IMG/VR virus record: IMGVR_UViG_3300030382_003857 | Length of the DNA stretch: 64,000 nt | DNA from: an uncultured virus (IMG/VR IMGVR_UViG_3300030382_003857) | Taxonomy: Duplodnaviria > Heunggongvirae > Uroviricota > Caudoviricetes | Reading direction: 5' to 3' (one strand) | Shown: one piece after another, positions 1,317 to 63,941 of the stretch | How the letters are laid out: every line of letters starts with the position of its first letter | Position numbering within the stretch: the stretch's first letter is position 1 | Notes under the pieces: model-generated | Told to the model about the DNA's origin: nothing | What the model saw: only the letters and a program-made list of their open reading frames with translations | Databases searched by the model: none | Translations under genes and position numbers: made by a program

Positions 1317-2225
1317 TTAAGCAGCACCTGGAGTTCCGAAGATTCCTCTAGGGTCAGACCAGCCGAAGCTGTATCTTTCTCTAGCTTTAAATCTTACGTT
1401 TCCAGTGTCGAAATCTCCTTCAATAGCTGTTTTGATCGGTGCTCTAACGAAATGTTTTAGTCCGTTAGGTGCATCTGTCATCAAGAACCACGCATCTGTG
1501 TCATTAAGGTAATGATTTACTCTATACCCCTCTGGCACCATGCCCATGCTATAGATTGCGTTGATGTCATTATCAGCTGTTCCGACTCTTTGAGGAGATC
1601 TCATAATTCTTTCAGCAGTAAATTGTAATTCTTTTGGAATTATCATCTTTCTGCCTTGAAGAGCTATTTTTAATCCTCTTTCGTCTACGAACGCTGCAAT
1701 GTCGATCAATGCTTGTTCAAGAGATGTTTCGTTCAAATCTGCCGCTGTAGCTAAGATATTAGACACAGTACCACCAGTTGCAAGTGGGTGATCGTTAGCG
1801 CATAAAAATGAGCCATCTCCCCCAGTGCCTGATGTGAAAGCGTTATTCAAGATTGTAGCACCTTTCACTTGTTTAGTGTGTGCCATAGATCTTGCTAAAG
1901 CTCTTGTGTATCTACCCGCTAATCTGTCATACAGATTGTCTTCAATAGCTTCCTCTGTGATAGCAAAAGCGAGAGCGATTGTCTCGTTAGTGTATCTAGA
2001 AGTGTAGACTTCTTGTGCTTGATCATAAGTAACCATTGCACCTTCAGCCTTAGTAGCTGCTCCAGCGAAGCCGGATAGCATTACTTCTTCTTCGAAAGCT
2101 CTGTCTGAAGTTTCTGATCTGAAGATTTCAGCAGATTCGTTGTCGTATCTGTTATATTCCAAGCCGAATAGTGCATTCAAACCTGGTTCTAGTTCTTTAA
2201 CTAGCTGTGCTCGTGATATTGCCAT
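1317..2225 (-). CDS. Major capsid protein
   Basis: 302 aa, MAISRAQLVKELEPGLNALFGLEY...FKARERYSFGWSDPRG; after scaffold; strong SD and terminator. Confidence 0.9.
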   Translation of the reverse strand: MAISRAQLVKELEPGLNALFGLEYNRYDNESAEIFRSETSDRAFEEEVMLSGFAGAATKAEGAMVTYDQAQEVYTSRYTNETIALAFAITEEAIEDNLYDRLAGRYTRALARSMAHTKQVKGATILNNAFTSGTGGDGSFLCANDHPLATGGTVSNILATAADLNETSLEQALIDIAAFVDERGLKIALQGRKMIIPKELQFTAERIMRSPQRVGTADNDINAIYSMGMVPEGYRVNHYLNDTDAWFLMTDAPNGLKHFVRAPIKTAIEGDFDTGNVRFKARERYSFGWSDPRGIFGTPGAA

Positions 2226-3351: not shown

Positions 3352-4365
3352 TTATACATCCTCCTTCACGAATTTTGCGTATTCTTCTAGTGGCACCCCT
3401 AATTTTTTAGCAATAGCCACCTGTGACTTGGTGAGTTTCACGGTTCTGCGTCCTGACTGTTTTCTACCAGCTGAAGCTACAGTTTGGACGGGTCTCTTAG
3501 CTTCTCCTTTGTCGGTAGAATCAGATCCAAAGCGTTGAGGAAAGTATTCCTGCATCTTTGTATCAATACTATTATAGTATGTGTCGCTCTCCACATCAAT
3601 ACCACGTGCTACAAGGTCTTCGTGAATATTCCACGCAGCACCGGTCATGACTCGGTCATTGCCGAACCATTCATTTTTTTGAGCCCAAGCCTTAGCTTTT
3701 TCACTGATTTCAGGCATTGTTTCCGGAGCCCTTGCAGGTTCTTTTGTTTCTTTTTGCTTGATTTCAGCTTTAGTGTTTTTCTCACGCTCAGCAAGTTTGA
3801 TTCTTGCTTTCTCTTTTTCAACGGCAAGTTTTGTAAGTTCATCATTTGCTTCCATAATTTTGTCAGCATTTTGATCTTCAATGGCACCCCGTAATTTATT
3901 TTTTACTTGTTCACGTTGTGCATCAACTCTTGCGTCAAATTCTTTGATATATTTCTCATCAGCATCATCAAATTTAGCCATTGAATTATCAAATTTAGAT
4001 TGTAATCCTTTGGCATATTCTGTAGCTGCTTTTTCTCTTCGTTCAGCTTCGCGTGCTCGATAAGTTAATTTATCAATTCTTTTTTGAACATTATCTGTGA
4101 TCTTGCTCAAATCGTCTTTAGGTTGTGTTACAGGCTGAGGTTCTTCTATTTTTTCTTCTTTTTCCTCAACAACGATCTTTGCTTTTTCTTCTTTTTTCTC
4201 TACGTGATCGGTATAACCTAAATCCACTTCTCCAACATTTAAATTTGGAGCAGGTTCTTTTGTCTCCTTTGGTTCTTTGACCTCGACGTTTTCTGCTTTA
4301 ACATCGTCGGTGTCTAACTCAACCTCGGGAGTCTTTTTTGTTTCTTCGGCTTGTGTATCGGCCAT
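3352..4365 (-). CDS. Capsid scaffolding protein
   Basis: Acidic coiled coil; C-terminal IAKKLGVPLEEYAK helix; position. Confidence 0.75.
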   Translation of the reverse strand: MADTQAEETKKTPEVELDTDDVKAENVEVKEPKETKEPAPNLNVGEVDLGYTDHVEKKEEKAKIVVEEKEEKIEEPQPVTQPKDDLSKITDNVQKRIDKLTYRAREAERREKAATEYAKGLQSKFDNSMAKFDDADEKYIKEFDARVDAQREQVKNKLRGAIEDQNADKIMEANDELTKLAVEKEKARIKLAEREKNTKAEIKQKETKEPARAPETMPEISEKAKAWAQKNEWFGNDRVMTGAAWNIHEDLVARGIDVESDTYYNSIDTKMQEYFPQRFGSDSTDKGEAKRPVQTVASAGRKQSGRRTVKLTKSQVAIAKKLGVPLEEYAKFVKEDV

Positions 4366-4377
4366 ATTATTCTCCTT

Positions 4378-4833
4378 TTAAAATAAGTGGAGAATGTTTT
4401 CTGGCTTTTTGATTGTACCTATTATTTCGTCGTCATTAAGGATACGGTGTTCACCGTATTTAGTTTGAAATCGTGAACCGGCATAACGTCCATAAATAAT
4501 GAACTGTCCTTTTTTACACCAAGGGCCATCAGGAAATTTAATCTTATCTTTATAACAATCTGGCCCCATCTTAACAACTAAACCAACGACAGTAGTCATT
4601 TGCATTGTTTCTCGCGTTGTATCTGCGAGTATAACTCCACCTTTAGTTTTTTTGCTAGGTTGATATGGTCGAATTAACATTCGCCAACCAACAGGTTCTG
4701 GTATGATTTCAAGATATTCTTTAATGCCTTCGGGATCTCTTGGTATTTGATTACCTTCTGAGTCGTCATCTTTTTTGGGTGTATCCAAATTGATGAGCTT
4801 TTGTTTAGGTTTTATCAATGTTGCCATCGTCAT
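4378..4833 (-). CDS. groES: Co-chaperonin GroES (Cpn10)-like protein
   Basis: PVGWRMLI, KTKGGVIL mobile loop, YAGS, ILNDDEIIG. Confidence 0.85.
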   Translation of the reverse strand: MTMATLIKPKQKLINLDTPKKDDDSEGNQIPRDPEGIKEYLEIIPEPVGWRMLIRPYQPSKKTKGGVILADTTRETMQMTTVVGLVVKMGPDCYKDKIKFPDGPWCKKGQFIIYGRYAGSRFQTKYGEHRILNDDEIIGTIKKPENILHLF

Positions 4834-6016: not shown

Positions 6017-6079
6017 CTATTTCTTTTTTTTCTTTTTAGCTTTTTTCTTTTTTTTCTTAACTTTTTTCTTTTTAGCCAT
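6017..6079 (-). CDS. 20-aa poly-lysine peptide
   Basis: MAKKKKVKKKKKKAKKKKKK; AAGGAGG SD; TAATG coupling to the upstream gene. Confidence 0.7.
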   Translation of the reverse strand: MAKKKKVKKKKKKAKKKKKK

Positions 6080-6303
6080 TATGCCTCCTTAAATTTAGTC
6101 CCTTTAATAGCACATCCTCCGCCTCGACTCAACTTAATTGGAGGTACTTGTGGGTTGGGGCCTTTCTTGGGAGGAGGGCCAAATCTAACCCCTCCTGAAC
6201 TCGCTTTAACGGGTTTACTGCCGTAGGCATCTGTCCATTCTCGAGCAATTTTAGGTTCGTTTGCCCACATCCATTTTCTTTGTTTTTCTGATTGAAATGG
6301 CAT
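6079..6303 (-). CDS. Small basic virion-module protein with GG motifs
   Basis: MPFQSEKQRKWMWANEP; KASSGG and KLSRGG. Confidence 0.7.
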   Translation of the reverse strand: MPFQSEKQRKWMWANEPKIAREWTDAYGSKPVKASSGGVRFGPPPKKGPNPQVPPIKLSRGGGCAIKGTKFKEA

Positions 6304-6464: not shown

Positions 6465-8855
6465 TTATTTCTCCTTTTTTGTCCGTTTATTTTCGGCTGA
6501 CTTTTTCATTCGTTCAACCTGTAATTTTGCCTCAGCTAAATCTCTTGTTTGATCTAATTTATCTTCGGCAATTCTAATCCTTTCAGCTGCTTGATCTTCA
6601 GCGCTTTCTAATTTCATTTTTTCAACATCAAGCTGTTCATCAAAATGTTCATCTCTAATTGAAAAGTCTTGTTGGGACTCTTGTGCTTTACGCTGAATAT
6701 CGACTGCTTTCAAATCTAATTCTCTTTGTTTTAATTGCACTAACGGATCCATTTTTTGATTACCTGCTTCTTCTTGAGCTAATCGAGTTGTAATTTGAGC
6801 AATACGTGCTGCAATCATAGCATCTACTCTAATTTTTGCTGCTTCGGGATCTGCTTCTAACATTTGTTGTAATTCAGGATTGTTTTGAATCTCAGCTCCA
6901 ACTTCACCTTGGGCTAATAAACTAACATGTTGAGAGACATGTCCTTGTAATAAGGCATAGACCATTGGATTAATTTGAACCATTCGGGTTCCTATATAAG
7001 CTCTATGAGCTTGAATATGTGCTTCATGATCTTGTTCTGGAAAAGCCACTGCAATTTTCATTTGTAATGATTCAGCATTTTCGATTGCTGGATCTTTTGG
7101 CATTGGTTTTTCTTCAGGTTTTAAAATATTATCAATTTCTTTAGTACCTAGAGCTTCATAAACTCTTCGATATGCTTCTCTCAAATTATGTAATTGAGGA
7201 TTAGACATTGCAATTTTTAAATTTTCATTTGCGAGTGTAACTCTTTGACTTAAACTGTAGATATTTGGATCTGCTACTGGAATAACATCTACTTGATCAT
7301 CAAAATCTTTTTCTTTGACCATACGATCTGCTCCATAAGTAGAATATGGATACACAGGTGGTAAATAGGTTTGAAAAACTTTAGCTAAGAGTCTAAATTC
7401 AACTCTCATTGCATAGTAACAACGCTTGTGAATAGCTGTCATGACTCTAGAACCACGTTCCAATAATGCCATTGTGCTACCAACATTACGATTTTGAGTG
7501 TCATTTCCGGTAGCCATATCGGTAATAGCAGCAAATCTTTGTCCCGCAGCTACTACAAAACCTAAAAGTTGGAATAATGTTGCAGAGGGTTCTTTAAAAG
7601 GCAACATTTGGAACTGATCTTTGATATTTCCTCCTGGAGCATCAACATCTCTAAATTCTCCTGGTTGAAAAGGCTGTTCATCGTCTCTAATTCGAATTCC
7701 TCGTGATTTAAAACCAGCAGGAAGATTTGAAAGTGTTCCAGCATCTAATAATTGTCTTAAAGCTTGAGTTGCTGTCTTAGAAAGACCTCCAATCGTGTGA
7801 ATTAAGCCTAATCCGTAAAATCCTAGTCCTGGTAAAAATTTATAATGAACAAAATACTCAATTCTTTTAAAAAATTCATCGTCTGGTAAGTAATTACGAT
7901 AAATTGACAAAATTTGGCCTGATCCTTCATCAACAGTTACAATATATGGGATTTTAACTTCTTTTTTAGAGTCTTTATTTTCAAATTCTTCTAAATTCAA
8001 ATCAACATGCATTTCTAAAATGTTATAATTGTCCGAACGATCAGCTGAAGGAGTAATTCCTTCTAATTCTTGGTATTTTTTTTCAATTCTATTGTCTTCA
8101 GGAGTAACCGGCTTTAGTTCAATGTCTCTATAAAAACCAGCTTTCTGTTTTTTTAAAATATCATTCTCACTCATTTTTAAAACATGAGTAATTCTTTCAC
8201 ATTCTAGTAAATCAGTTGTGTAATAAGGAACCACTAAATCTTCAGCGGGAATAAATTTAGCTACTGCTCTTTGTTGAAGTTCATCATAGTAAATTTTTTT
8301 AAATGCCGATCCTGCTAAAGGTAAATAAAATAATAATTGATCCATGTCCGGAGTATATTCTTCCATTTTCTCCGTGATCATATAATTCATAAAAGCTTGC
8401 ACCCGTTCTGCTTGATTAGTTTTCGCGTCGGTTTCATCTCCAACTACTTTACATTTTACAGGCCCATCAGGCGGTAATAATTCTTTATATGCTTGTGCTT
8501 GAAATTGTGTAACTGCTTCTGCTAATAAAGGGTGAGTTACATTAGCTGACCCTTTGAATGGTCTTGTTAATACGGTTTGTTTAAGTCCTAAAAGATCTAA
8601 GCCTATAGTATATCCCTGCTCCCAATCTTTTCTGGTAATTTTATCTTTTTTAAATTCTGTAACTAATGTTGAGGACAAACGTTGTAAAACACGTTCATCT
8701 AAATTCTCTGCAATGTTTTCGTAAAAGTCTACTGCTTGTTGTGGAGCTTCTTCAACAGGCTCCTCACTAGCTTTTTCCACTTCAACAGCAACTTCTTCTT
8801 CTGTCGTAGGGCCTTTTTCTTCCACGATTTCAGTTTGTCTCTCAACATCAGCCAT
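6465..8855 (-). CDS. Portal protein
   Basis: 796 aa with long coiled-coil C-terminus; HPLLAEAVTQFQA, GSAFKKIYYD; between terL and scaffold. Confidence 0.85.
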   Translation of the reverse strand: MADVERQTEIVEEKGPTTEEEVAVEVEKASEEPVEEAPQQAVDFYENIAENLDERVLQRLSSTLVTEFKKDKITRKDWEQGYTIGLDLLGLKQTVLTRPFKGSANVTHPLLAEAVTQFQAQAYKELLPPDGPVKCKVVGDETDAKTNQAERVQAFMNYMITEKMEEYTPDMDQLLFYLPLAGSAFKKIYYDELQQRAVAKFIPAEDLVVPYYTTDLLECERITHVLKMSENDILKKQKAGFYRDIELKPVTPEDNRIEKKYQELEGITPSADRSDNYNILEMHVDLNLEEFENKDSKKEVKIPYIVTVDEGSGQILSIYRNYLPDDEFFKRIEYFVHYKFLPGLGFYGLGLIHTIGGLSKTATQALRQLLDAGTLSNLPAGFKSRGIRIRDDEQPFQPGEFRDVDAPGGNIKDQFQMLPFKEPSATLFQLLGFVVAAGQRFAAITDMATGNDTQNRNVGSTMALLERGSRVMTAIHKRCYYAMRVEFRLLAKVFQTYLPPVYPYSTYGADRMVKEKDFDDQVDVIPVADPNIYSLSQRVTLANENLKIAMSNPQLHNLREAYRRVYEALGTKEIDNILKPEEKPMPKDPAIENAESLQMKIAVAFPEQDHEAHIQAHRAYIGTRMVQINPMVYALLQGHVSQHVSLLAQGEVGAEIQNNPELQQMLEADPEAAKIRVDAMIAARIAQITTRLAQEEAGNQKMDPLVQLKQRELDLKAVDIQRKAQESQQDFSIRDEHFDEQLDVEKMKLESAEDQAAERIRIAEDKLDQTRDLAEAKLQVERMKKSAENKRTKKEK

Positions 8856-8876: not shown

Positions 8877-9413
8877 TTAGTAGGTTTCAGTACGCAAAGT
8901 GCCGTTTAATTTAGTTTTAATAAATGCACCACCGGAAGCTTTCTTAACATCTTTTTTCTTCCAGTCTTTGCTTCTTTTACCCCAATCTCCATAAGATTCA
9001 TCTCTTGCAACTTTTTTATCATGCTTGGTTTTTTTCTTACCAAGTCTCATTCCAATAGATTCATCTTCGTGAGCGTAGATACCTTGTTTAGCTTTGATAG
9101 ATCCACCCTTGTTCCAAAATTTGTACCAAGGCTCCTTCTTTTTCCAAACATCAGCACCTTCTTGAGATACTCCTCCTTGCTTAGCGATTTTACTTAAGCC
9201 TTTGTCCCATTTTGCAATATTTTCTGCAACTTTAGTTCCAGAAGGAAAAGTAATTTTTTCTCCAGGTTTGCTAGGAATTTTCCAACCAGTATATCTCTTT
9301 AACTTGGATGTTTTCCCTGCTGCACCTGCGCCTAACATTTTAGAAGCACCGTAAGCCACACCTGCAATAGCTGCCGCTTTACCAACTTTTTTTAATGTTT
9401 TTCTTAGACTCAT
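8877..9413 (-). CDS. Basic putative internal virion protein with GG motifs
   Basis: Lys-rich; WNKGGSI and KASGGAFI. Confidence 0.6.
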   Translation of the reverse strand: MSLRKTLKKVGKAAAIAGVAYGASKMLGAGAAGKTSKLKRYTGWKIPSKPGEKITFPSGTKVAENIAKWDKGLSKIAKQGGVSQEGADVWKKKEPWYKFWNKGGSIKAKQGIYAHEDESIGMRLGKKKTKHDKKVARDESYGDWGKRSKDWKKKDVKKASGGAFIKTKLNGTLRTETY

Positions 9414-9452: not shown

Positions 9453-11699
9453 TTACCATTTAAAAAGGTTAACTACTAGACCACCCTCTTTTTTGTATAA
9501 TTTGAAAGGTTGTCCTAACATTTCTGGAGTGATTTTTAAAGCAAATACTTCATAATAATTTCGAACGTCATCTTTTGGAATATATTTCACAGTTTGCGTC
9601 GATGCTGCAAAAGCCTCGGCTTCAGCCTGGGTCTCAAATGCAGCTACATGCTCTTTAGATCCTTTTATATTCAATTCAGGTTTTCCTTTTCTTGTTTCAA
9701 TAACTTTATAAGGTTTGTTAGGATCTGACAAGGAAATTCTAATTGTTTTAGCTTCGGAATTATATTGTTTGGCTAGATCTATCATTCTTTGAGGTAAAAC
9801 AGCGGTTTGTTTAACATTAGTTTGTTTCCCTTTTAAAAGTAAGCCGGGAATACCCGCCTTTCCTTTAGCTGTACCATAAAATTCTAAATCTCCAAGTTTA
9901 ACTTCACGCTTTAAGCCGTGTAATTTTTCTACAGGATTAATAGCTACCCATTGGACATTACTTTCTGCTCCGGTTTTAGCCACATGTTTAATCATATGGT
10001 CTCCCCATTGATCTCTTTGAATCATAGGAAGATACCCTATCTCATCCGAGTGACTCGCTGCTCTTTTAGTCGCTAAGTTAATACTATTAATGGTGTTCAT
10101 TTTAATATCTCCATAGACTCGTCTTAATTCATTTAATTTTCTAAAATCCTTTTCTGTCATTTTAAGACCTTTATTCGTAAGTGCATTCATTTGTTCTCTT
10201 AGCGTTCTTAAACTAATATTGGCTTGTAAAAATTCTCCTTCTCGATTGAAAGGATTAAAACGTTCATTAGGTTCTGTAATGCCTTGCGTTTGTTTTCTAT
10301 TGCTTCGAATCGCTCTCATGGCGCTTTGAGCATAGTCCGCTTGTCCTTCATGAATCATAAAAACTTTTTCACCCCCGTCAGTTGTTCGTTGTCCATAACG
10401 TACATGATAAATTTGGTTATTAATTTCTTTGTTACCTACTCGTTCATAGTGAGAAGGTGAGATATTTTTACCCCAAGGCATACTTTTTGGATAAACAATA
10501 AGATCTTCAATATAACGCTCATCTCCATGCGTTCGATATTCCATACGATCTCCGTATCGAGTGGTTCTCTCACTTTTTTTGATTCGATTAACTTGTCTTA
10601 AATAATCTGTTACCTTTTGTTTTTGAAGATTGAGTGCAGTGGTATCTATAAAAGCTGGCACAGGAATCGCTTTATTTTTTGCACTAAAGGCATTTTTAAA
10701 TTGTGTACTGGTATGTAATAAATCTGTCAGACTTTCTTCTAAATTTTTAAGTTGTTCCTGCTGTTTACCTATTGATACGTTAGGACGATTAAAACTTTTT
10801 GATACAGTTAATAAATCATCTGTAATCTGACCTAAAGTATCATCAATGTTAGCTATTCCAGGTTCATTAACTAATTTTGCAACATTAGCTTTGGCATTTT
10901 TAATTTGGTTTAACGTTGATGTAATGACCGGTGCCATCTCTTTACCGGCTTGTACGGTATCTTCAAATCTAATGACTTTAAAATTAACCGCAGGGGATTT
11001 AACAACTTTGGTTAATAAATCTTCTTTAGATACAGGAATATTCATTTTTCTTGCATTAAAAAGATAACCTCCTACTAATTCATTGCTTTTATTAAAATTT
11101 GCAATATTAGCATCAAATAATTCTTCTCGATCAATTCTCATTTTAACTTTTTCAAAACCCGGTGCTGTGGATCTTAGTGTCGCCATTCGATTATGATTGG
11201 CAAATTCATTAATCCATTGTTGTGCCGATAAAGGTTTTTTAGAAGGATGGGTTGCAATAAAATCGTAGAGGGCTGATCCAAATCTTCCTTTTCCAGATCC
11301 TTGAGTTAAAGGAGTAGCTGCCGCTTTAGCTGAAAAAATATTACTAGCACTTTTAACATTAACCGGGGGAAGTTTCTCAACCGTTTGCATAGCATTAAAG
11401 GTTTCTGTTTTACCTGATTTAATAATTTCATCTACTTTGTCGATGACTTTAGGTTCCGTGATCCGTGGAGGAGGAACCAAAGCTTTACTTTTCCCTAAAG
11501 GTGTTTTTGTTAATTCAGGAACTAAGTTTAAAAAAGGAAATCTTTTTTTGAGTAAATACCCAACCCCCGCGATACCTCCTACAGTGACCGCGGCTCCCGG
11601 TACCCAAGAGTGATCTTTACGAGGTTTAGTAAGAATGCCATCTTTAGACTTACCAACCTTATATTGTTCAATAGCCTCTTCTAAATTTTTATTAGCCAT
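9453..11699 (-). CDS. Large putative internal (ejected) virion protein
   Basis: 748 aa; HVR...IHEGQAD segment; ends YKKEGGLVVNLFKW. Confidence 0.55.
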   Translation of the reverse strand: MANKNLEEAIEQYKVGKSKDGILTKPRKDHSWVPGAAVTVGGIAGVGYLLKKRFPFLNLVPELTKTPLGKSKALVPPPRITEPKVIDKVDEIIKSGKTETFNAMQTVEKLPPVNVKSASNIFSAKAAATPLTQGSGKGRFGSALYDFIATHPSKKPLSAQQWINEFANHNRMATLRSTAPGFEKVKMRIDREELFDANIANFNKSNELVGGYLFNARKMNIPVSKEDLLTKVVKSPAVNFKVIRFEDTVQAGKEMAPVITSTLNQIKNAKANVAKLVNEPGIANIDDTLGQITDDLLTVSKSFNRPNVSIGKQQEQLKNLEESLTDLLHTSTQFKNAFSAKNKAIPVPAFIDTTALNLQKQKVTDYLRQVNRIKKSERTTRYGDRMEYRTHGDERYIEDLIVYPKSMPWGKNISPSHYERVGNKEINNQIYHVRYGQRTTDGGEKVFMIHEGQADYAQSAMRAIRSNRKQTQGITEPNERFNPFNREGEFLQANISLRTLREQMNALTNKGLKMTEKDFRKLNELRRVYGDIKMNTINSINLATKRAASHSDEIGYLPMIQRDQWGDHMIKHVAKTGAESNVQWVAINPVEKLHGLKREVKLGDLEFYGTAKGKAGIPGLLLKGKQTNVKQTAVLPQRMIDLAKQYNSEAKTIRISLSDPNKPYKVIETRKGKPELNIKGSKEHVAAFETQAEAEAFAASTQTVKYIPKDDVRNYYEVFALKITPEMLGQPFKLYKKEGGLVVNLFKW

Positions 11700-11962
11700 T
11701 ATAGTAAATCCTTGTCTACGTTTTTACCGATGACAATTTCTCCCCCTTCGCTACGATTTGTAACTTGGCCTTTAAGATTTACTTTTAGTTTATATTTATC
11801 AATTAATTCTTTTCTAGCTGAGGTGTAAGCTGAATTTCTGCTCAAGCCGGCTGCTTGATTTTCTTTATAAAGATTTTCAAATATCTTTTGAGCTCTTTTC
11901 CCTACTCTAGCCTTTTTAAAGACCATATTTAAAACGGGAAGTCCAAATTTAAATATTGACAT
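11699..11962 (-). CDS. Small basic protein with C-terminal GKNVDKDLL tag
   Basis: Ends SEGGEIVIGKNVDKDLL. Confidence 0.7.
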   Translation of the reverse strand: MSIFKFGLPVLNMVFKKARVGKRAQKIFENLYKENQAAGLSRNSAYTSARKELIDKYKLKVNLKGQVTNRSEGGEIVIGKNVDKDLL

Positions 11963-11970
11963 GTGTTCTC

Positions 11971-13449
11971 CTAATAATAAACAAATTTTTTGTTTGCCTG
12001 TGCTTCTTTAATTTCGTCTTCATCCGTATAGGTCGAAACAAAATATCCTTGTCGATATCTTAACACAGCTTGGGTTGTACTATCTACATAGTCATCATAT
12101 TCTCCATGAGGAAAAGCAGCACATTCTTCAATCACTTCTTGAGCAAACCGAGCATTTGCTGGATACCAAACCTGACCCGATTCAAACACCGGGGATACTG
12201 CATTTACCCGTGAATGTTTATCTTTTCCTTTACTAGGAACAAAATCAATAACTGGAATTCCCATTCGTCTAAACTCTTGTAAAAGGGGCTGACCCGTGGC
12301 TTTTGCTTCAATAATCACGGACTCTGGTTGCCAGTATCTATATTGTTCTAAAGCAATAGCTTTTAATTCAGGAAAATCCCATTTTCCTCTCATAGCATCT
12401 AATAGGAGTAAAGCATCAGGTTGATTCTCATCAGGTTGAAAAACAGCCCAACTTGTAATAGCTGAATAATCTGCTGTTTCTTTTTTCGAAAATGCTGTAT
12501 CATAAGATTGAATAACATGTTTAAGTTTAGGTATGGCATATTTCCAAGGACGCCACCAATCTCGTTTAAGGATTGCTCCTTCTTCAGAAGTGGGTTCTTG
12601 CATATATTGAGCCGACCAGTTACGGATTGAAATTGAAGCCTTCACCTTTTCTAACTCATCTAAAGACCAGTATTCAGGCCATACCGGGGAACCTGATGGT
12701 AATATTGCTGGGAATGATATTTGTTTCCATTTGTCTGCTTTGGGTTCTGACTGCATACGTAATAGACGTCCTGTTAGATCATCTTCCGCCCATCTGGTCA
12801 TCACTAAAACGATGGATCCGCCGGGTTGTAAACGCTGTCTTGGGCCGCTAGTATACCATTCATAAGCTCGTTCCATTGCGTTCTCTGACCAAGAATCTTG
12901 TTCCGTGTGTGGATCATCAATAATCAACAAGTCCGCACCACGACCCGTGATTGCTCCACCAACACCAGCTGCAAAATATTCTCCGCCATAATTGGTTTCC
13001 CATTTTCCTTTTGCTTTTGCATCTTCTCTTAATCGAACATCTCCGAAGATTTGTTTGTATTCAGGAGTATCTAATAAGTTTCTAACCTTACTACCAAACC
13101 TAGTTGCTAATTCTGTATTGTGAGAAACCTGCATTAACTTCATCTTAGGATTTCGTCCCATAAGCCAAGCTGGAAAATAAACAGAAGCAAATTCAGATTT
13201 TGTATGACGCGGGGGCATATTTACAATTAAACGTTTTGCTCTATCTCTAGAAATAGAAGTAAACTCATTAGCTATAATTTGATGATGTCCCCACTTTGTT
13301 TTATCTTTTGTTTTTCTATAAATAAATTCAGGCCATACATTTTTTACAAAATATAAAAAATTATCTTGGCATAACTTAATATGTTCAATCCAAGTTTTCT
13401 CTACTCTATCCCGTAATTGATCTAAAGATAAAAGGTCAGTCTTATTCAT
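11971..13449 (-). CDS. terL: Terminase large subunit
   Basis: MPPRHTKS Walker A variant, LLIIDDP Walker B, SYDTA and DDYVD nuclease acids. Confidence 0.92.
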   Translation of the reverse strand: MNKTDLLSLDQLRDRVEKTWIEHIKLCQDNFLYFVKNVWPEFIYRKTKDKTKWGHHQIIANEFTSISRDRAKRLIVNMPPRHTKSEFASVYFPAWLMGRNPKMKLMQVSHNTELATRFGSKVRNLLDTPEYKQIFGDVRLREDAKAKGKWETNYGGEYFAAGVGGAITGRGADLLIIDDPHTEQDSWSENAMERAYEWYTSGPRQRLQPGGSIVLVMTRWAEDDLTGRLLRMQSEPKADKWKQISFPAILPSGSPVWPEYWSLDELEKVKASISIRNWSAQYMQEPTSEEGAILKRDWWRPWKYAIPKLKHVIQSYDTAFSKKETADYSAITSWAVFQPDENQPDALLLLDAMRGKWDFPELKAIALEQYRYWQPESVIIEAKATGQPLLQEFRRMGIPVIDFVPSKGKDKHSRVNAVSPVFESGQVWYPANARFAQEVIEECAAFPHGEYDDYVDSTTQAVLRYRQGYFVSTYTDEDEIKEAQANKKFVYY

Positions 13450-38030: not shown

Positions 38031-38244
38031 TTCGAGTCGCTATCATTTGACCCAAAGGATCATTAGGAAAGGCTGCCGCATAGTTTTGTGCTCCAACATT
38101 TGTTTGGTTTGGATTCATTCCTGGTGGAATTGGATTACCCGGTGCCCCTGGAGGAGCTTGTTGAACTCCTGCTACTGGACTTATGTTCGGAGTTATTTTA
38201 GGAACCCCCAATTTTTTTAATATCTTTTTGATTTGCTTCTTCAA
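38014..38244 (-). CDS. Probable frameshifted C-terminus of the upstream ejection protein
   Basis: TTG start; +1 overlap across A7/G5 runs; YAAAFPNDPLGQMIA. Confidence 0.55.
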   Translation of the reverse strand: MKKQIKKILKKLGVPKITPNISPVAGVQQAPPGAPGNPIPPGMNPNQTNVGAQNYAAAFPNDPLGQMIATRNAQQA

Positions 38245-51033: not shown

Positions 51034-51600
51034 TCACACTAACTTTGGCCCTGTTAACCATAGTGTAAGAGTATTTCTAGTACCTTTAGTAACGGGTGTT
51101 ACTTTATGACATAGGAAGCTAGAAAACATAACCATATTACCAGGAGTTAATTCCTTTATTAGTGTTTTTCCTCCTCCCATATTAATACATAAGTCGCCTC
51201 CTTGATAGTCCTTCTCTGATAAATTTAAAAGGCACGTTAATTTGATATCGGACACTGCGTTTTTTTCAGGTATCCCATCTAGATGCCATCCATACTCAGA
51301 CTTTTTACCAGCTGAATAAGTATTATAATTTAAATATTCTCCGTCTAATAAAGGATATAGATGATACCCCCAATTTAAAAAATTAGTATAGAGAGATTTA
51401 TTAAAAAATTCTTTGAGAATAACTTCTATATGTCGATAAGGAATCATTCTAACGGTAGAAGTTTTAAGCACATTAGAAGCGGGATTATCTTTTGCCTTAA
51501 TTAAATGTTTATTAATATGTTTATTAATATCTTTAATTTGCTGTGGTGTATAAACTTTCCACCAATAATAGGCATGTCTTTTAACTGCTTTAGGATCCAT
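51034..51600 (-). CDS. 2OG-Fe(II) oxygenase (PKHD/prolyl-hydroxylase-like)
   Basis: WHLD, KLT, YQGGDL, HKVTPVTKGTR. Confidence 0.88.
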   Translation of the reverse strand: MDPKAVKRHAYYWWKVYTPQQIKDINKHINKHLIKAKDNPASNVLKTSTVRMIPYRHIEVILKEFFNKSLYTNFLNWGYHLYPLLDGEYLNYNTYSAGKKSEYGWHLDGIPEKNAVSDIKLTCLLNLSEKDYQGGDLCINMGGGKTLIKELTPGNMVMFSSFLCHKVTPVTKGTRNTLTLWLTGPKLV

Positions 51601-53140: not shown

Positions 53141-54575
53141 TGTTACGAATTAAATTAATTAAATTTTTATGTTTAAATTTTTGATAAGAGCTTCTATTAG
53201 CTAAATAACGTTTAATATTGGTAGCTATTTCAATTTGATCAACATCAGGTAATAATTGAAATTCGTTTTTAATTTCATTCTTCTTGAGTAAACCTAAAGC
53301 GTGTAATTTCACAATAAAGTTAGGGGCATCAAATAATAAATAAGAACTAAAAAAAGGAAAATCAAAACCACTCGGTAAACGTGTTTGCCATTTTTTTAAA
53401 TTAGTTTTTAAACTATCAGTCAAAGAAGTTTTTTTAATCATTTTCCAAAACGGTGTATCTCCTTTTTTAATATAATAACTTAATGATACAAAATCTAAAA
53501 TATTTTGATTAATTTCTTTTACCATATTATTATAAGTTTGGATACTTTCTTCATTATAATTAGATAATAAATGCATGAGAATGAAACTTTGAGTAATGGT
53601 TTGTGAAATAGCAGTGGCTTCCAAAGGTTCTATAAAGCTAGAACTTAATCCAATACACGCACAATTTTTAATCCAATTAGTTTTATTTTGACCTGAGTTA
53701 AATTTAATATCTTTAAAGATTTCTACCTTCTGTTTTAATAATTGTTCACATTCTTTTTGAGCTGCTTTAGCAGAAATAAAGTTGTCATTAAAAACGTATC
53801 CATTTCCCCATCTACCCCAAACAGGAATACGCCACAACCAACCTGCTTTCATTCGAATAGCTGAAGTGTAAGCGGGGTACTCAGAAGTGTCCGGTGTTGG
53901 AAAAGCAATCGCGTGGTTTACTTTTAAATATTTTTCATAACTTTCCCACTCTCCTCCTTGTTTTTTATTAATTAAACGATGAAGTCCTGACACATCAATA
54001 TAGAAATCAAACTTATATTTTTTTGTTCCTTGTAACCATTTAACGCTTTTGTCTTTATGAATTTGAACATCAGTTAATGTATCTTCAATAATACGAATTC
54101 CTCTTTTTTTACATTGTTCGAGTAAAAACTTATTGGTTAATTCCGCATTAAGATGAAATTGATGAGGTTGGAGATTAGTATCCAGGGTATTATTTTTTAT
54201 ATTGTCAAAACTAACTATCTCTTGATTAGTATAATTATGACCGATTAAATAACCAAAACCTCCTAAATAATGAGTGATTTTATAAGTATAGAAATAGTCT
54301 TCAAGGGAATGATAATAATCTTTCTCTGTCCATCCTTGAAATTTAACTGCTGTTTTAAAAGTCGCTCCGCAATGTTTAATAATCTCTGCGGGAGTAATTC
54401 CAACAAACTTAATAAATTCCATAAAATGTTCAGTGGTACTTTCTCCTACACCAATGATACCAATTTTGTTTGATTTAATGATATGGATTTTAAGTTTTTC
54501 TTGAAAGCGTTGTTGTAAAATAAGAGCACAGATTAAACCGCTTGTTCCTCCTCCTACAATCCCAATTGTTTTCAT
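53109..54575 (-). CDS. Flavin-dependent (tryptophan-halogenase-family) halogenase B (start MKTIG)
   Basis: GGGTSG, GVGEST, ATFK, WLWRIP, FIEPLEA. Confidence 0.9.
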   Translation of the reverse strand: MKTIGIVGGGTSGLICALILQQRFQEKLKIHIIKSNKIGIIGVGESTTEHFMEFIKFVGITPAEIIKHCGATFKTAVKFQGWTEKDYYHSLEDYFYTYKITHYLGGFGYLIGHNYTNQEIVSFDNIKNNTLDTNLQPHQFHLNAELTNKFLLEQCKKRGIRIIEDTLTDVQIHKDKSVKWLQGTKKYKFDFYIDVSGLHRLINKKQGGEWESYEKYLKVNHAIAFPTPDTSEYPAYTSAIRMKAGWLWRIPVWGRWGNGYVFNDNFISAKAAQKECEQLLKQKVEIFKDIKFNSGQNKTNWIKNCACIGLSSSFIEPLEATAISQTITQSFILMHLLSNYNEESIQTYNNMVKEINQNILDFVSLSYYIKKGDTPFWKMIKKTSLTDSLKTNLKKWQTRLPSGFDFPFFSSYLLFDAPNFIVKLHALGLLKKNEIKNEFQLLPDVDQIEIATNIKRYLANRSSYQKFKHKNLINLIRNNESVHAGWVY

Positions 54576-55174
54576 CGAATCCCAAATTCCACCCAACCTG
54601 TCAAAAGATACTTATCATTTTCTAAAGGAGGATTTCCCCGATGAACATGTGTATATGCTGTTGGAAATATCAGAAGGCTATTACGTTTAGGTTTATAGCG
54701 TTGGTTCTGATGAAGAAATTCTGTTTCTCCTCCTTCTTCAACAGTATTTAAAAATAAACTAAAGGCAGCGATCCGACGAATGACTTTAGGAGCAGCATCT
54801 TCCGTGTGCCAGACATGATAACCTTCTCCTGGACGCGTCTTTTGAATTTTAAGATCGTAAATGGTATGTTGACTATAGTTGTATAAAATAGGATATCTAT
54901 CACAGTATTCTTTCCAATGAGTTCCAAAAAAGATTTCAAGAAATTTATCATCTGCAGCTAAGTGAAGGGTATCTAATTTTTTCCCCGCAATTCTACCCCA
55001 CGTTAAAGAAATGGCATGATCACTCTTTTGTAAAGGATCTGATTTTTCCCATTTTTGTCGTTGAATGGTTCGTCCTGTTTTTTCAGCTAATTTATAATAG
55101 CTTAAAAATCCATCAATAACTTCTTCAGGAAAAGCATTTTCGACTAAAGCAATATGATCCTTAACATTCATCAT
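54572..55174 (-). CDS. 2OG-Fe(II) oxygenase (HxE type)
   Basis: WHTE, GGETEF, HVHRGNPP, KYLLTGW. Confidence 0.85.
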   Translation of the reverse strand: MMNVKDHIALVENAFPEEVIDGFLSYYKLAEKTGRTIQRQKWEKSDPLQKSDHAISLTWGRIAGKKLDTLHLAADDKFLEIFFGTHWKEYCDRYPILYNYSQHTIYDLKIQKTRPGEGYHVWHTEDAAPKVIRRIAAFSLFLNTVEEGGETEFLHQNQRYKPKRNSLLIFPTAYTHVHRGNPPLENDKYLLTGWVEFGIR

Positions 55175-55776
55175 TTAAAAGGTTCTCCTAAATACCATTG
55201 AACTAAAGATTTTCGACACCCTGTAGTCACTGGAGTTACTCTATGCCATAAAAAAGAAGGAAAAACAACCACAGTTCCTGCTGATTTTTCCAGAGTAATG
55301 GTATGAATATTATGTGCGTATTGCCATGAAATTTCAAAATCCCCTCCTTTATAATCTTTTTCATCGGAGAGTTGTACAGTTACAGATAGTTTACGCATTA
55401 AACCAATATGATTTAAAGACTTCGTATCATTAATGGTATTGGCTTGAGTATGACAATCTTGATGCCAGTCATAGTGGCCTTGTTGTTGATATTCTGTATA
55501 TTGAATAGGTTCAGCTCGATGAAATTCATAGTTCCAGTTACAAGTTTCATTTGCTCGTGTAACAATTTTATTAATTTTATTGATAAGCCAAGAATCTTTT
55601 AACCATTTAACATTTGATTTTCGATAACGATTATCTTCGTCTGGATGATGAGATATAGTTCCTTTTTTAAAAGGTAATTTCCCAGCACTTTGTAAAATTT
55701 TCTTAATTTCTTTTGGAGTAAAAGCGTCTTTAATTTTAAAATATTTATAATTATTTCGACCAGAATCCTGCTGCAT
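55171..55776 (-). CDS. 2OG-Fe(II) oxygenase (PKHD/prolyl-hydroxylase-like)
   Basis: YDWHQD, RKLS, YKGGDF, HRVTPVTTGCRKSLV. Confidence 0.88.
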   Translation of the reverse strand: MQQDSGRNNYKYFKIKDAFTPKEIKKILQSAGKLPFKKGTISHHPDEDNRYRKSNVKWLKDSWLINKINKIVTRANETCNWNYEFHRAEPIQYTEYQQQGHYDWHQDCHTQANTINDTKSLNHIGLMRKLSVTVQLSDEKDYKGGDFEISWQYAHNIHTITLEKSAGTVVVFPSFLWHRVTPVTTGCRKSLVQWYLGEPFK

Positions 55777-60420: not shown

Positions 60421-61125
60421 TTATTTAATTCGTGCCGATGGAGATGGGATTGGTAATCTCATAGTTCCATCAGTATACTCACCTCGTCTTCTTCTTCCCA
60501 TTTGTTCTAAAGCAAAGGTTTGTATTTCTTTATTATACTTATCTTCATAGACCTTGTACATAGCCTCGGGGCCTTTGAGGAATGAGTAAGCTTCACACAT
60601 CACTGCATAAAATAAGAGCTCTTGAGCCTTATTACTTAGATAAGTAACCGTCTTTTTATTAGGAACACTTCCCGGATCATTGGAGCTATATAGGTGTTCA
60701 GGGTATTTGATATAGTTAATCTGACAGGTATCAGCAGACGCAGCCAAAGGGGCTATAATGATATACTGATTTCCATCGGATTTATCCCAATTTGCATAAT
60801 ATTTCGGAGTGCCTGTGGCATCCGTACTATTATACTCACTAATAAAACTTAAATCTCTTTTTTGTAAAAATGACCTAACACCACCTGAAGTAATATGTTG
60901 AACGGATCTGACTATCAATAAATCATCAGGCATAAGTACATATCGACTACTTGCTTGAAATGTTGATGTCGCTTGTTTTCGACAATAATCTCCATCGACT
61001 TCTCTATAGATTCTTGCTTCTGAATCTAAAATAAATCCATCAATAATCGAATCAGTTAAAACATTACTATCGACTTCTGTGTAATCTCTAATTTTAGTTA
61101 ATAAAGCTGAATATGAAATTGCCAT
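60421..61125 (-). CDS. Head-tail adaptor-like protein
   Basis: AEARIYRE, GTPKYYA, LLFYA. Confidence 0.6.
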   Translation of the reverse strand: MAISYSALLTKIRDYTEVDSNVLTDSIIDGFILDSEARIYREVDGDYCRKQATSTFQASSRYVLMPDDLLIVRSVQHITSGGVRSFLQKRDLSFISEYNSTDATGTPKYYANWDKSDGNQYIIIAPLAASADTCQINYIKYPEHLYSSNDPGSVPNKKTVTYLSNKAQELLFYAVMCEAYSFLKGPEAMYKVYEDKYNKEIQTFALEQMGRRRRGEYTDGTMRLPIPSPSARIK

Positions 61126-61484
61126 TATGTTATCGCCACCGTTACTGTTCCAAGATATAATCTTGCTAATCTTTTTTTATTTGCTTCATTAGCTGTTTCT
61201 GGAGGAGCCATACTATAGGTTCCACTAGAAGGACTATTTATTGCCCACCATAGTTGTGGTTCTAGACTTGCTATGATTCCACTTTTATGTGAAGGTCTAG
61301 GATGTTGTAATGCAATTGGATCTGCTCCAATATAAGGAGGATCTAATTGTGGTTGCTTAGGTTCATATTCACTAATGTGAACTAAAGCTCCATTCCATTC
61401 CTTTACCATTTCAAGATAAGGAAACTGCATTCCGCTTCGATCGGAAATAGAAAGTGCATATTTACCTGACGCCCATTTAGCCAT
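61125..61484 (-). CDS. Tail-module hypothetical protein
   Basis: ISDRSG..FPY.EM.KEWNG, EPKQPQL. Confidence 0.65.
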   Translation of the reverse strand: MAKWASGKYALSISDRSGMQFPYLEMVKEWNGALVHISEYEPKQPQLDPPYIGADPIALQHPRPSHKSGIIASLEPQLWWAINSPSSGTYSMAPPETANEANKKRLARLYLGTVTVAIT

Positions 61485-62182
61485 TATGATCCTTGTGGGT
61501 AATAAGAAGCTGGAGTAATGTACGCTGATGTACGTTGCCCATCTTCAGTTAATGCTCTAGACATTTCATCTTCATAGAGCTGTTTTAACATTTGTATTCT
61601 TTGTGGAGCATATTTGATTGCTAAGTAATATGCTAGTCCAGCACACATTGCTGGAATGAAACGATAAACCACGTCTGCGGTATTAGTATAAGCTCCAGAA
61701 TCTTCTATTTTTTTAACATAGTAATATTTTAAATGAGTATAGGTACTCGCGTCTGGAGTTAAATATAAAGTAATTTTAGGTGTTGTTAATCTTTCTACAT
61801 AATATTTAGAAGGAGATCCTGTTGCTCCTTTATTTGGCAAAGCAGCATATTCAGATCTAGAAATTTTTGTAATAGATACATCTTGGGTGCTTGATGCGGG
61901 ATCTACAATAGAGGCATTATTAGAAACGTATGCTTCTAAAATATCTGCTGTTGAAGAAGGGCTTGTATAACTTGAAGTTCCACTTGTTAAAGCTTGAGCA
62001 TATAAAGCAACCTTCCATAAATGAACACCTCGATTACCCCATTCAGAAAATAAAATATTTAGACTTCGTCTAGCAGTTCTTAAATCATAACCACTATTGG
62101 TTTGAATCCCACATCTTTCGTAGGCTTCTTCTACAATTTCGTCTATTGCTAAATCGAATGTTGTTGTTCCAGATGTTGCCAT
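61484..62182 (-). CDS. Tail tubular / adaptor protein
   Basis: EEAYERCG, ARRSLN, GLAYYLA. Confidence 0.65.
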   Translation of the reverse strand: MATSGTTTFDLAIDEIVEEAYERCGIQTNSGYDLRTARRSLNILFSEWGNRGVHLWKVALYAQALTSGTSSYTSPSSTADILEAYVSNNASIVDPASSTQDVSITKISRSEYAALPNKGATGSPSKYYVERLTTPKITLYLTPDASTYTHLKYYYVKKIEDSGAYTNTADVVYRFIPAMCAGLAYYLAIKYAPQRIQMLKQLYEDEMSRALTEDGQRTSAYITPASYYPQGS

Positions 62183-62188
62183 AATTCA

Positions 62189-62404
62189 TTATAATAAATC
62201 TTTATCAACATTTTTGCCGATAACGATTTGACCTTCCTTTGCTTTAATCATTTTTCCTTTGCTCCATAATCCAAGACCTTTTCCAACTAGATCAATTCCA
62301 GCTCCGTACCAACCTAAATCACTACCTCGACGAAACCAACCTTTACCCTTAGCAAATGGATTCATATTATACCAAGAATATCCCTTTTTGGCTTTACTAG
62401 CCAT
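62189..62404 (-). CDS. Small basic protein with C-terminal GKNVDKDLL tag
   Basis: Ends AKEGQIVIGKNVDKDLL. Confidence 0.7.
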   Translation of the reverse strand: MASKAKKGYSWYNMNPFAKGKGWFRRGSDLGWYGAGIDLVGKGLGLWSKGKMIKAKEGQIVIGKNVDKDLL

Positions 62405-62835
62405 TACAATAAATCCTTATCAACATTTTTGCCAACAACAATTTCACCACCGGATTTGTATTCTGCTTCCATATCCCTTGGGTTTAATTTTTCAACTGCT
62501 TGTGCAATAATGTAATCCCCCATATTAGCTTTCTTAATTCCACCTTTGTTAGCTTTCTTAACAGATAGCTGAGGTTTCCATCCTGGAGTAAAACCTTGTC
62601 CACCTTTCCCTATAGTTATGCGAGCTTTGTTTTTTGCAAGTTCTTTAGCCAAACTATCTTTCTTACGTAATGTAGCTAATTTTCCTGAATTGAAATGATG
62701 GGTATGAACTTTTTTTGTAATCCATTTTTTTGGTTTCTCTTTTTTTGTAATCCATTTTTTTGGTTTCTCTTTTTTCTCAATCCACTGAATATTCTCAGAG
62801 GTGTTTTTATCTTTTACTGTAATATAATCACTCAT
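62404..62835 (-). CDS. Basic protein with GG motifs and C-terminal GKNVDKDLL tag
   Basis: ANKGGI; ends YKSGGEIVVGKNVDKDLL. Confidence 0.7.
   Translation of the reverse strand: MSDYITVKDKNTSENIQWIEKKEKPKKWITKKEKPKKWITKKVHTHHFNSGKLATLRKKDSLAKELAKNKARITIGKGGQGFTPGWKPQLSVKKANKGGIKKANMGDYIIAQAVEKLNPRDMEAEYKSGGEIVVGKNVDKDLL
62711..62770. repeat. Exact 30-bp tandem duplication encoding KEKPKKWITK
   Basis: 62711-62740 equals 62741-62770; degenerate partial third copy follows. Confidence 0.9.
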
Positions 62836-63248
62836 TTTAACATTCCTTTATAATATTTTCTGTAAGTTGCGTTGGAACCACCAGGGCCACCTGAAATAAA
62901 TTTCCCAAGATAGGCTTGTTGTACTTTACCACCTTGGTTAAATTTTTTAGAAAAATTAAATCCAACATATTTATTTTTCCCAACTTTTGTTGCTTCTACT
63001 CCAACATGGCCTTTGTCACTTTCTCTTATAAGATTTATTCCTATTTCACTATTGATATTTCGTTTATCGATTTTACTAAAGCCTTTGGCAAGACTTGCTC
63101 CTACCGTTGTTTTTCCTTTAGTTAAATTTAAGTCGGCTCGTGGTTTGGTATACCATTCAGTGTCTTCTATACCTATACCTCCACCAATAGTGGTATCACT
63201 CAAAAGTTTCTTCATCACTGAAGATTTTATTTTCTCTTTATCTGCCAT
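62832..63248 (-). CDS. Amphipathic beta-strand protein with GG motif
   Basis: Alternating strands; VGFNFSKKFNQGGKV. Confidence 0.65.
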   Translation of the reverse strand: MADKEKIKSSVMKKLLSDTTIGGGIGIEDTEWYTKPRADLNLTKGKTTVGASLAKGFSKIDKRNINSEIGINLIRESDKGHVGVEATKVGKNKYVGFNFSKKFNQGGKVQQAYLGKFISGGPGGSNATYRKYYKGMLK

Positions 63249-63264: not shown

Positions 63265-63444
63265 CTATGTTAGTTGATTAGACCTTTTTCGGTTGTACAA
63301 CTTCTTAGATTTTATCACTTTTGGGGAGTATAGTCTAGATTCCAAGAGTTTGGCATAAGGGTCACGTTTCCACTTTTTATCAGTTCGTGCACCTTTTAAT
63401 TTACCATCAATTTCAGCTGGTAATTGAGAACGAGTAATAGCCAT
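63265..63444 (-). CDS. 59-aa basic protein
   Basis: Manual translation MAITRSQLPAEIDGKLKGARTDKKWKRDPYAKLLESRLYSPKVIKSKKLYNRKRSNQLT; TAATG coupling. Confidence 0.7.
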   Translation of the reverse strand: MAITRSQLPAEIDGKLKGARTDKKWKRDPYAKLLESRLYSPKVIKSKKLYNRKRSNQLT

Positions 63445-63941
63445 TATTCAATAACCTCATTTCCCATCTTATCATATTTATATTTCATTTCGGGAAGGCC
63501 ATTCTCGTACGATTTGCCGTCGAAAGTCAGAGCTATTTTTCTATTTGCTCCTTTTTCATTATAACTTACGTGGATCCATCCCGCGTTTTTTAAATGTGGT
63601 TGGTAGAATTCTAAAATGAGCTGATCGTAGTCGCAGTTATCTTTGACCCAATGAGCAACTTTTAAATTATGAATACCAGCAATTTCAAAATCAACCGCCT
63701 GGCCTTTGCAATGTTGACTCGAGTCACTGCTGCCCAATTTACGATTTACCTCCAAGGAACGGAATCCCGAGTTGATTAAAACTGGCTTACCAAACTTGGC
63801 TCGTACGGGTTCTAAAATTTCATAACAAACATTTTCTAAATTCTTAACCTCTCCCGGCCCTGGAATATTAGCTAATCCGTTTCGAGCTGCAACTTGACTT
63901 TTAGTCATTTCTTCTAATGTGAAGTGTTTACTTAGTCTCAT
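63444..63941 (-). CDS. Peptidase M15A-type endolysin
   Basis: LSKHFTLEE, NSGFR, SQH..GQAVD, WIHVSY. Confidence 0.88.
   Translation of the reverse strand: MRLSKHFTLEEMTKSQVAARNGLANIPGPGEVKNLENVCYEILEPVRAKFGKPVLINSGFRSLEVNRKLGSSDSSQHCKGQAVDFEIAGIHNLKVAHWVKDNCDYDQLILEFYQPHLKNAGWIHVSYNEKGANRKIALTFDGKSYENGLPEMKYKYDKMGNEVIE

Follow-up and report, generated by a model that had tools for sequence, protein, structure and literature searches.

Three unrelated proteins encoded in one stretch of viral DNA end in the same 15-residue peptide, and this C-terminal tag is a recurrent, portable element in related viruses. The stretch is a 64,000-nucleotide (nt) sequence, hereafter the window, of the uncultured virus IMGVR_UViG_3300030382_003857 from IMG/VR, and its three tagged open reading frames (ORFs) are named A, B and C. 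In relatives the tag lies at the very C-terminus of at least 15 unrelated groups of proteins, is selected at the peptide level, is confined to gene slots beside head and neck genes, and occurs together with an adjacent gene for a protein of 748 amino acids (aa), p748. Judged from sequence comparison, we see an even chance that the tag is a portable docking or address peptide for one common partner.

ORFs A, B and C end in SEGGEIVIGKNVDKDLL, AKEGQIVIGKNVDKDLL and KSGGEIVVGKNVDKDLL, respectively, each followed by a stop codon, and the form common to them is G(G)[EQ]IV[IV]GKNVDKDLL-stop. A six-frame translation of the window contains GKNVDKDLL in these three ORFs only, which agrees with the shared ending reported by an earlier, sequence-only reading of this DNA. 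Over the 15 tag codons, A and B are identical at 33 of 45 nt (9 synonymous and 2 non-synonymous codon differences), A and C at 34 of 45 (8 and 1), and B and C at 37 of 45 (3 and 3). In a repeat search of the window, the three copies form a single 47-nt family with 79-87% identity. These comparisons confirm the codon differences quoted by that reading and, since the tag codons differ mostly synonymously, rule out a fresh DNA duplication, as it had argued. Nor are the three proteins full-length homologues, a finding that would have spoken against the proposed tag: their tag-trimmed bodies have no blastp match among themselves, and profile-profile comparison by hhalign with small family alignments gives a probability of 0.1% for each pair. 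All three are small and basic, as had been claimed (Table 1), and PHROGs and Pfam scans of A, B and C returned no match. In the AlphaFold2 (AF2) model of ORF A, the body folds into three helices, and the predicted local distance difference test (pLDDT) of the tail is below 50 from residue 60. Approximately ten homologues of ORF A are found in IMG/VR contigs, every one at the same gene position. The 90%-identity cluster of ORF B has 6 members, labelled 'hypothetical' or without a name, and ORF C has a middle segment (GQGFTPGWKPQLSV) in common with long tagged proteins of up to 459 aa that precede the adaptor gene in relatives. ORF C also contains a perfect 30-nt tandem duplication (62709-62768), by which the peptide KKEKPKKWIT is encoded twice.

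The tag recurs well beyond the window. The DNA pattern I-[IV]-[IV]-G-x-x-V-D-x-D-L-L-stop is present in 35 IMG/VR stretches, which contain 28 distinct tagged ORF ends in addition to the window's three. With G-G-E placed in front and no stop codon in the pattern, there are 26 distinct IMG/VR matches, and a stop follows directly in 26 of 26. The same degenerate pattern does not occur at all in 596 Gb of cellular DNA (185,579 bacterial and archaeal species, each represented by a single genome), and this contrast excludes chance and is evidence for a viral origin of the tag. For the protein level, a tag profile was built from 34 C-terminal 30-mers (alignment A1) and searched against 1,835,955,588 representative proteins. 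The search gave 69 matches at E<=0.001, and 66 of them end exactly in the tag. The other three are P0066, which has one extra Trp; P0059, whose sequence breaks off within the tag; and P0024 (1,571 aa), a false match rejected as a tagged protein because only its basic-linker columns match. The consensus is G-G-E-[IV]-[IV]-[IV]-G-[KR]-[NG]-V-D-x-[DS]-L-L-COOH (15 residues), with the variants ...GGEIIIGRGVD[LMI]DLL, ...GGEVVIGKNVDRSLL, ...GGDVQINRKGVVDKDLL and ...GGMIIGKGKDYIKDLL. In alignment A1 the second Gly, Val-Asp and Leu-Leu are invariant. When 32 distinct tag DNA sequences are compared, each position with an invariant Gly, Val or Ile is coded by 3-4 different codons; fixed residues combined with free synonymous change in the first 11 codons mean that selection acts on the peptide itself. 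The sequence-only reading would have lost its footing had the tag not been found in relatives, and it is found there, C-terminally and on many unrelated bodies. Compared with PDB chain sequences, the tag profile gave 0 matches at E<=10 in a library that holds no chains shorter than 20 residues and so misses bound peptides. The strings NVDKDLL, GKNVDKD, VIGKNVD and GRGVDLDLL occur in no paper of the literature searched. A search of the main text of the pan-genome paper on HTVC023P-type phages (PMC9599517) found nothing on C-terminal features, internal virion proteins or a scaffold, and the sole passage on a motif in that text concerns CsgG.

All sources pooled, there are 126 distinct tagged proteins. 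Their bodies fall into at least 15 unrelated groups by single-linkage blastp, a conservative clustering since mosaic proteins chain together, and A, B and C belong to three different groups. The median body length is 124 aa (range 36-459), and the isoelectric point (pI) exceeds 9 in 96%. When 51 tagged bodies were scanned with Pfam, P0010 alone scored above a curated cut-off, and this protein, with an epimerase at its N-terminus, is probably a chimera that arose in assembly or gene calling. Homologous bodies can carry different tails. P0068 consists of the body of gp32 of Pelagibacter phage HTVC023P with the tag in place of the gp32 tail (...RGVGAAIRGHKFIGVK). The window protein p138 follows a 115-aa tagged family (...NTGGDVQINRKGVVDKDLL) up to FNQGGKVQ and continues with the last 27 residues of a neighbouring 74-aa ORF family; this has the look of a tail swap, in which two genes that adjoin each other in relatives would have been fused within what had been the tag, right after GG-x-VQ. 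The point of tail exchange lies at or just past the Gly-Gly. The idea of a portable tag on interchangeable bodies, put forward by the sequence-only reading, is thus borne out. The window also encodes a small protein, p74, which begins like the long tagged proteins of relatives but whose tail SRGGGCAIKGTKFKEA is different from the tag and is of the same kind as those on HTVC023P gp32 and gp51. This second common tail type, (R)GGGAA[IV]RGxKFxGV / SRGGGCAIKGTKFKEA, is present on several small basic HTVC023P proteins and one window protein (window 6079-6303; HTVC023P gp32 and gp51 at L006 21655-22392 and L007 1481-1864), and may be a parallel tag system.

By its gene content, the window phage is an HTVC023P-type pelagiphage: its large terminase (terL) is 76% identical to that of HTVC023P, the next-nearest terL relatives are HTVC027P, 023Pt_psg01 and DSL-LC04, and its genes are arranged as on the HTVC023P map, but circularly permuted. 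Along the minus strand the order is terL, A, p748, p178 and portal, then further genes to the capsid, and, beyond the window end, M15 peptidase, p59, p138, C, B and adaptor. The sequence-only reading had placed two tagged loci 50 kb apart, which holds for window coordinates alone. The contig is 64,992 bp long and, if it is circular, the two loci are ~14 kb apart and flank the head-assembly genes. Across relatives, tagged genes occupy a first slot between terL and p748, where 1-5 of them are followed by p748, p178 and the portal gene, and a second slot, where up to three stand between M15 peptidase with p59 and the adaptor. A third slot is known from a single case (L065), in which the tagged gene directly follows two large ejection-like proteins that are ~30% identical to the 767-aa and 997-aa proteins of the window. 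The number of tagged cassettes varies from 1 to 5 even among close relatives. A 37-kb record that extends over the replication region has all of its 4 tags within the first 1.9 kb, and the replication region itself is free of them.

The gene next after the last tagged gene of the first slot is always p748. Upstream sequence of at least 200 nt is available for 25 p748 loci; the strict tag precedes the gene in 20 of them and the variant GGMIIGKGKDYIKDLL in 4; these four (L099-L102) form one subclade, and the fifth exception has just 234 nt upstream. Neither p748 nor the tag is present in HTVC023P, or in the first 50 kb of HTVC027P, 023Pt_psg01 and DSL-LC04, or in four complete or nearly complete IMG/VR relatives whose capsid proteins are 72-81% identical to that of the window. 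A tblastn search of C, A and p748 against 50,697 GenBank phage records found none, although the low-complexity filter may hide tag-only matches; the four closest GenBank records were additionally screened for the tag by regular expression. This co-distribution of tag and p748 is striking. Homologues of p748 are 36-45% identical to the window protein, and all of them keep the tail KLYK..GGLVV..F(KW), with the invariant form KLYKKEGGLVVN[LMI]FKW. We note that the C-terminal tail KLYKKEGGLVVNLFKW is invariant across homologues only ~40% identical, and that p748 has a possible hydrophobic Gly/Ala-rich segment near residues 35-50 and many invariant His, Asp and Glu positions. p748 has no PHROG or Pfam assignment. 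Its AF2 model, based on 22 sequences, has a mean pLDDT of 55.6, a Foldseek search of the model against the PDB found nothing at E<=0.001, and a search of the ESM Atlas returned viral hypothetical clusters only. The best profile match among PDB sequences, YacP (E 0.018 over 64 residues), was rejected as a relative. In the next protein, p178, and its homologues, the N-terminus is basic and includes a helix rich in Ala and Gly, and the conserved tail is GG....TKLNGTL[KR]T.T[YWF]; the p178-type N-terminus (MS.KK.LKK.GKAA.AAGAAYG.SK) is also found in several tagged families.

The last codons of the tag carry a second layer of information, at the RNA level, which the sequence-only reading had not noticed. 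An ATG overlaps the stop codon of the tagged gene in all 64 distinct tag contexts (loci L011-L110), as TAATG in 49 and as ATGA in 15; in 10 of the TAATG cases, the overlapping ATG opens a short frame only, and the true start codon follows a few bases later. In the window, the stop of ORF A (11699-11701) overlaps the p748 ATG as TAATG, the stop of ORF C overlaps the ATG of ORF B in the same way, and the adaptor ATG, an example of the displaced start, lies 6 nt past the stop of ORF B. Tag codons 12-13 read AAG-GAT in 30 of the 64 contexts and AGG-AGT in 18. Lys at codon 12 is AAG in 31 contexts and AAA in 1, and Arg is AGG in 21 of 21, whereas at the other Lys position of the tag the two codons are balanced (AAA:AAG = 12:14). 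An AGGA core is placed 6-9 nt before the next start in both the KD and the RS version of the tag; because the core is kept in both, the KD/RS alternation is best read as Shine-Dalgarno preservation. These regularities demonstrate dual coding, in which the last five tag codons and the stop also form the predicted translation-initiation region of the next gene. Each cassette, read in this way, is the supplier of the coupling signal for the gene behind it.

From these features we infer that the tag binds a partner and that tagged proteins are packaged. In the tagged proteins, a basic linker and a Gly-Gly hinge precede the tag. On its own the peptide is probably disordered, and its pattern of strand, G-K-N turn and strand suggests a short beta-hairpin that would form on binding; the tail of ORF A, unstructured behind a helical body in the AF2 model, fits such a motif. 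Basic linker, hinge, strand-turn-strand pattern, hydrophobic end, portability and terminal position together give the anatomy of a docking peptide. The tag would tether a fast-changing set of small, very basic, unrelated proteins to one partner made by the clade, most plausibly during head assembly, and the proteins would end up inside the virion. The tagged repertoire, which counts 3 members in this genome and in relatives reaches as many as 5 in one slot and 3 in another, appears to turn over fast, and a coupling signal in every cassette would make the array freely extensible. Basic passengers without recognised domains, encoded in head and neck slots, fit internal virion proteins, and by analogy with the internal proteins of T4 and the ejection proteins of podoviruses we regard the passengers as putative members of this class. 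Several partners can be considered. The capsid shell or the scaffold is a tentative candidate, and we give the same weight to something else altogether; p748 is a rather doubtful one, and the portal is unlikely. The number and basicity of the passengers speak for a high-copy partner such as shell or scaffold, as does the tag being far more conserved than the body of p748, and co-distribution and constant adjacency speak for p748. A three-chain complex prediction that combined the capsid protein, p748 (residues 143-748) and the tag alignment of 30 residues, run with our own alignments and outside calibration, gave a score of 0.00 and a mark of 0.32, which counts neither for nor against these partners. 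We also entertain, as a possibility well short of probable, a pelagiphage clade with encapsulin-like C-terminal cargo loading, in which the hairpin tag would dock small basic proteins in the head, with p748 or the HK97-fold shell as receptor, for delivery into SAR11 together with the DNA.

Short terminal address peptides are known from other systems. In T4, unrelated small, basic, polymorphic proteins (IPI-III and Alt) bear a common N-terminal capsid targeting sequence (CTS), by which they enter the head and are delivered along with the DNA (PMC9024508; see also PMC3012670). The T4 prohead protease cleaves the CTS off. The tag resembles the CTS as a short terminal peptide common to unrelated polymorphic small proteins encoded near head genes. 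It differs in being C-terminal, as the 26 DNA matches and the 66 profile matches illustrate, and in belonging to a podovirus with a separate scaffold, in which packaging is proposed. A prohead protease gene was not recognised in the head module by PHROGs or Pfam. The tail of the HK97 protease has a C-terminal capsid-targeting role. The N-terminal signal of P1 DarB is sufficient to send a reporter into the capsid (PMC9024508); unlike the tag, it is N-terminal, has ~30 residues, and belongs to one large protein instead of being common to many. The cargo peptides of family 1 encapsulins are ~10 C-terminal residues behind a flexible linker and are found on unrelated cargo proteins, some of them encoded at distant loci; their binding site is a pocket inside the HK97-fold shell, on its inner face (PMC8229669). 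The tag is similar in that it, too, is a C-terminal end that different proteins have in common; a basic linker and a Gly-Gly hinge precede it, and it lies in a tail modelled as disordered. However, encapsulin cargo proteins are enzymes, whereas the tagged passengers are small, basic and without known domains, and nothing here ties the tag to the capsid protein, which is 81% identical in tag-less relatives. The tag may also be similar to a Thermotoga encapsulin peptide in the pattern G-G-[DE]-hydrophobic-x-hydrophobic-G/R-K. Finally, the scaffold of phage 80alpha and SaPI1 CpmB share a 16-residue C-terminal helix-and-hook (RIIK motif) that binds the capsid protein (PMC5644958). Both cases involve unrelated proteins with a common C-terminal end, but in 80alpha and CpmB the motif forms a helix and repeats the end of the scaffold itself, and the scaffold here ends in ...KKLGVPLEEYAKFVKEDV.

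Several observations weigh against the docking reading. The C-terminus of the window scaffold is unlike the tag, so there is no copying of a scaffold end as in CpmB. The tag hidden Markov model (HMM) finds only A, B and C among 900 window ORFs, and no tag-like segment is present in the scaffold or other proteins; the idea that the tag mimics a segment of a structural protein was rejected on this result. Capsid, portal, scaffold and the GroES-like protein are 57-81% identical in HTVC023P, which is tag-less. Such homologues neither indicate nor exclude a core protein as receptor, and they would count against a specific one. The co-occurrence of tag and p748 is not phylogenetically independent, because every contig with the tag falls into one clade, and shared ancestry could explain it. 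The conservation of D-[KR]-[DS]-L-L-stop can be attributed in part to the apparent RNA-level constraint. In addition, the literature searched, including parts of PMC9599517 and of the isolate paper, contains no virion proteome of an HTVC023P-type phage.

The RNA-level layer also raises the alternative that the conserved 3' end is chiefly a nucleic-acid cassette junction, consisting of a Shine-Dalgarno core, an overlapping start and recombination homology, with the peptide as a by-product. The start-stop overlap in all 64 contexts, the codon bias that keeps the AGGA core, the variable number of cassettes among close relatives and the fusion of p138 at the hinge are all consistent with it. However, the stretch GGEIVIGKNVD, encoded by the first 11 codons, precedes both the AGGA core and the spacer, and its residues stay fixed although each position is written with 3-4 synonymous codons, a freedom that an RNA or DNA signal would not permit. 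Tag copies of the same genome agree at only 73-82% of the 45 tag nt, a poor substrate for homologous recombination, and ordinary overlaps elsewhere in the window do without such a 45-nt element. We consider this alternative quite improbable. A self-association module, similar to a mini-foldon-like hairpin, that would bundle the tagged proteins, perhaps with p748 and p178, into hetero-oligomers is in our view just as improbable. The strand, turn (G-K-N, G-R-G or N-R-K-G in alignment A1) and strand would suit a hairpin, several copies are present per genome (3 here, and as many as 5 and 3 in the two slots of relatives), and all proteins coded between terL and portal carry a GG-plus-hydrophobic tail, but the AF2 monomer tail is unstructured and 15 residues are short for an autonomous oligomerisation domain.

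The tail might instead be a short linear motif for a host protein, for example a mimic of the GroES mobile loop that binds GroEL, a C-terminal degron for a host protease, or a ligand of a PDZ-type protease; we hold this to be unlikely. A pattern [K]-x-x-G-G-hydrophobic3 is present in the loop KTKGGVILAD of the GroES-like protein, in KKEGGLVVNLF of p748 and in the variant tag GGMIIGKG, and the free hydrophobic end -D-L-L-COOH would suit such a ligand. The tag pattern presumably also resembles the loop of E. coli and human GroES/Hsp10. However, GG and the hydrophobic triplet are separated by an additional Glu in the canonical tag, and the tag profile has no match at E<=10 among PDB chains of at least 20 residues. 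The mobile loop of GroES/Cpn10 lies within the Cpn10 fold, and A, B and C have no Cpn10 match in Pfam or PHROGs, the only one in the window being the GroES-like protein (E 4.9e-10). Tagged genes are located in head and neck slots only, and tag-less relatives on the same host genus carry homologous bodies with other tails (RGGGAAVRGxxFxGV), which would be surprising if the target were a strongly conserved groove of the host. GroEL-loop mimicry as a general cause of all GG-tails was down-weighted for this last reason, as the tails differ among relatives that share a host genus. The docking peptide is the reading that we prefer over these alternatives.

The features of the window that bear on the tag are collected in Table 1.

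Table 1 Positions of the tagged ORFs, tag copies and surrounding genes in the window.
Feature	Position	Strand	Remarks
ORF A	11699..11962	(-)	87 aa, pI 10.1, directly after terL
ORF B	62189..62404	(-)	71 aa, pI 10.1, Gly/Trp/Lys-rich
ORF C	62404..62835	(-)	143 aa, pI 10.0
Tag copy A	11702..11746	(-)	last 15 codons of ORF A (GGEIVIGKNVDKDLL)
Tag copy B	62192..62236	(-)	last 15 codons of ORF B (EGQIVIGKNVDKDLL)
Tag copy C	62407..62451	(-)	last 15 codons of ORF C (GGEIVVGKNVDKDLL)
Dual-coded sites	11699-11720, 62189-62210, 62404-62425	(-)	
Large terminase (terL)	11971..13449	(-)	upstream border of first tag slot
p748	9453..11699	(-)	748 aa, basic
p178	8877..9413	(-)	small basic, between p748 and portal; conserved GG-tail GG....TKLNGTLrTxT[YWF]
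Portal protein	6465..8855	(-)	PHROGs/Pfam
p74	6079..6303	(-)	N-terminus MPFQSEKQrKWMWAN as in long tagged proteins of relatives
GroES-like co-chaperonin	4378..4833	(-)	PHROGs/Pfam; loop KTKGGVILAD
Probable scaffolding protein	3352..4365	(-)	acidic, coiled-coil; C-terminus ...KSQVAIAKKLGVPLEEYAKFVKEDV
Major capsid protein (Phage_capsid_4)	1317..2225	(-)	Pfam
M15 peptidase	63444-63941		PHROGs/Pfam
p138	62832..63248	(-)	body of family tagged in relatives
Adaptor (SU10-adaptor family)	61484..62182	(-)	directly downstream of second tag slot
Second SU10-type adaptor	60421-61125		PHROGs/Pfam

Two other regions of the window are described here as side observations. The two largest proteins, of 997 and 767 aa (38198-41191 and 41191-43494), are probable ejection proteins; neither has an HTVC023P counterpart by tblastn, and both end in ...GG[SN]. 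Within the tail-fibre region, positions 51034-55776 contain two tryptophan-halogenase-like and three 2-oxoglutarate-Fe(II) (2OG-Fe(II)) oxygenase-like genes, a cluster of auxiliary or modification genes with no role assigned.

To our knowledge, head-loading address peptides have been established experimentally in a few model phages only (T4 and P1, both N-terminal) and in encapsulins. If the docking reading is true, the tag would be a C-terminal head-loading address peptide in podoviruses of the HTVC023P-type group, which is reported to dominate marine viromes and to be the most abundant one there (bioRxiv 10.1101/2019.12.14.876532). The structural-module genes of these phages are mostly unannotated, and the tag offers a simple sequence rule by which at least 66 clusters of dark proteins can be assigned a probable location, and it singles out p748 as a linked protein without an assigned function. 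The last tag codons provide an example of overlapping constraints on protein and RNA, and a portable tag of 15 residues could serve as a packaging handle for engineering. The tag also makes it testable which proteins a SAR11 phage injects together with its DNA.

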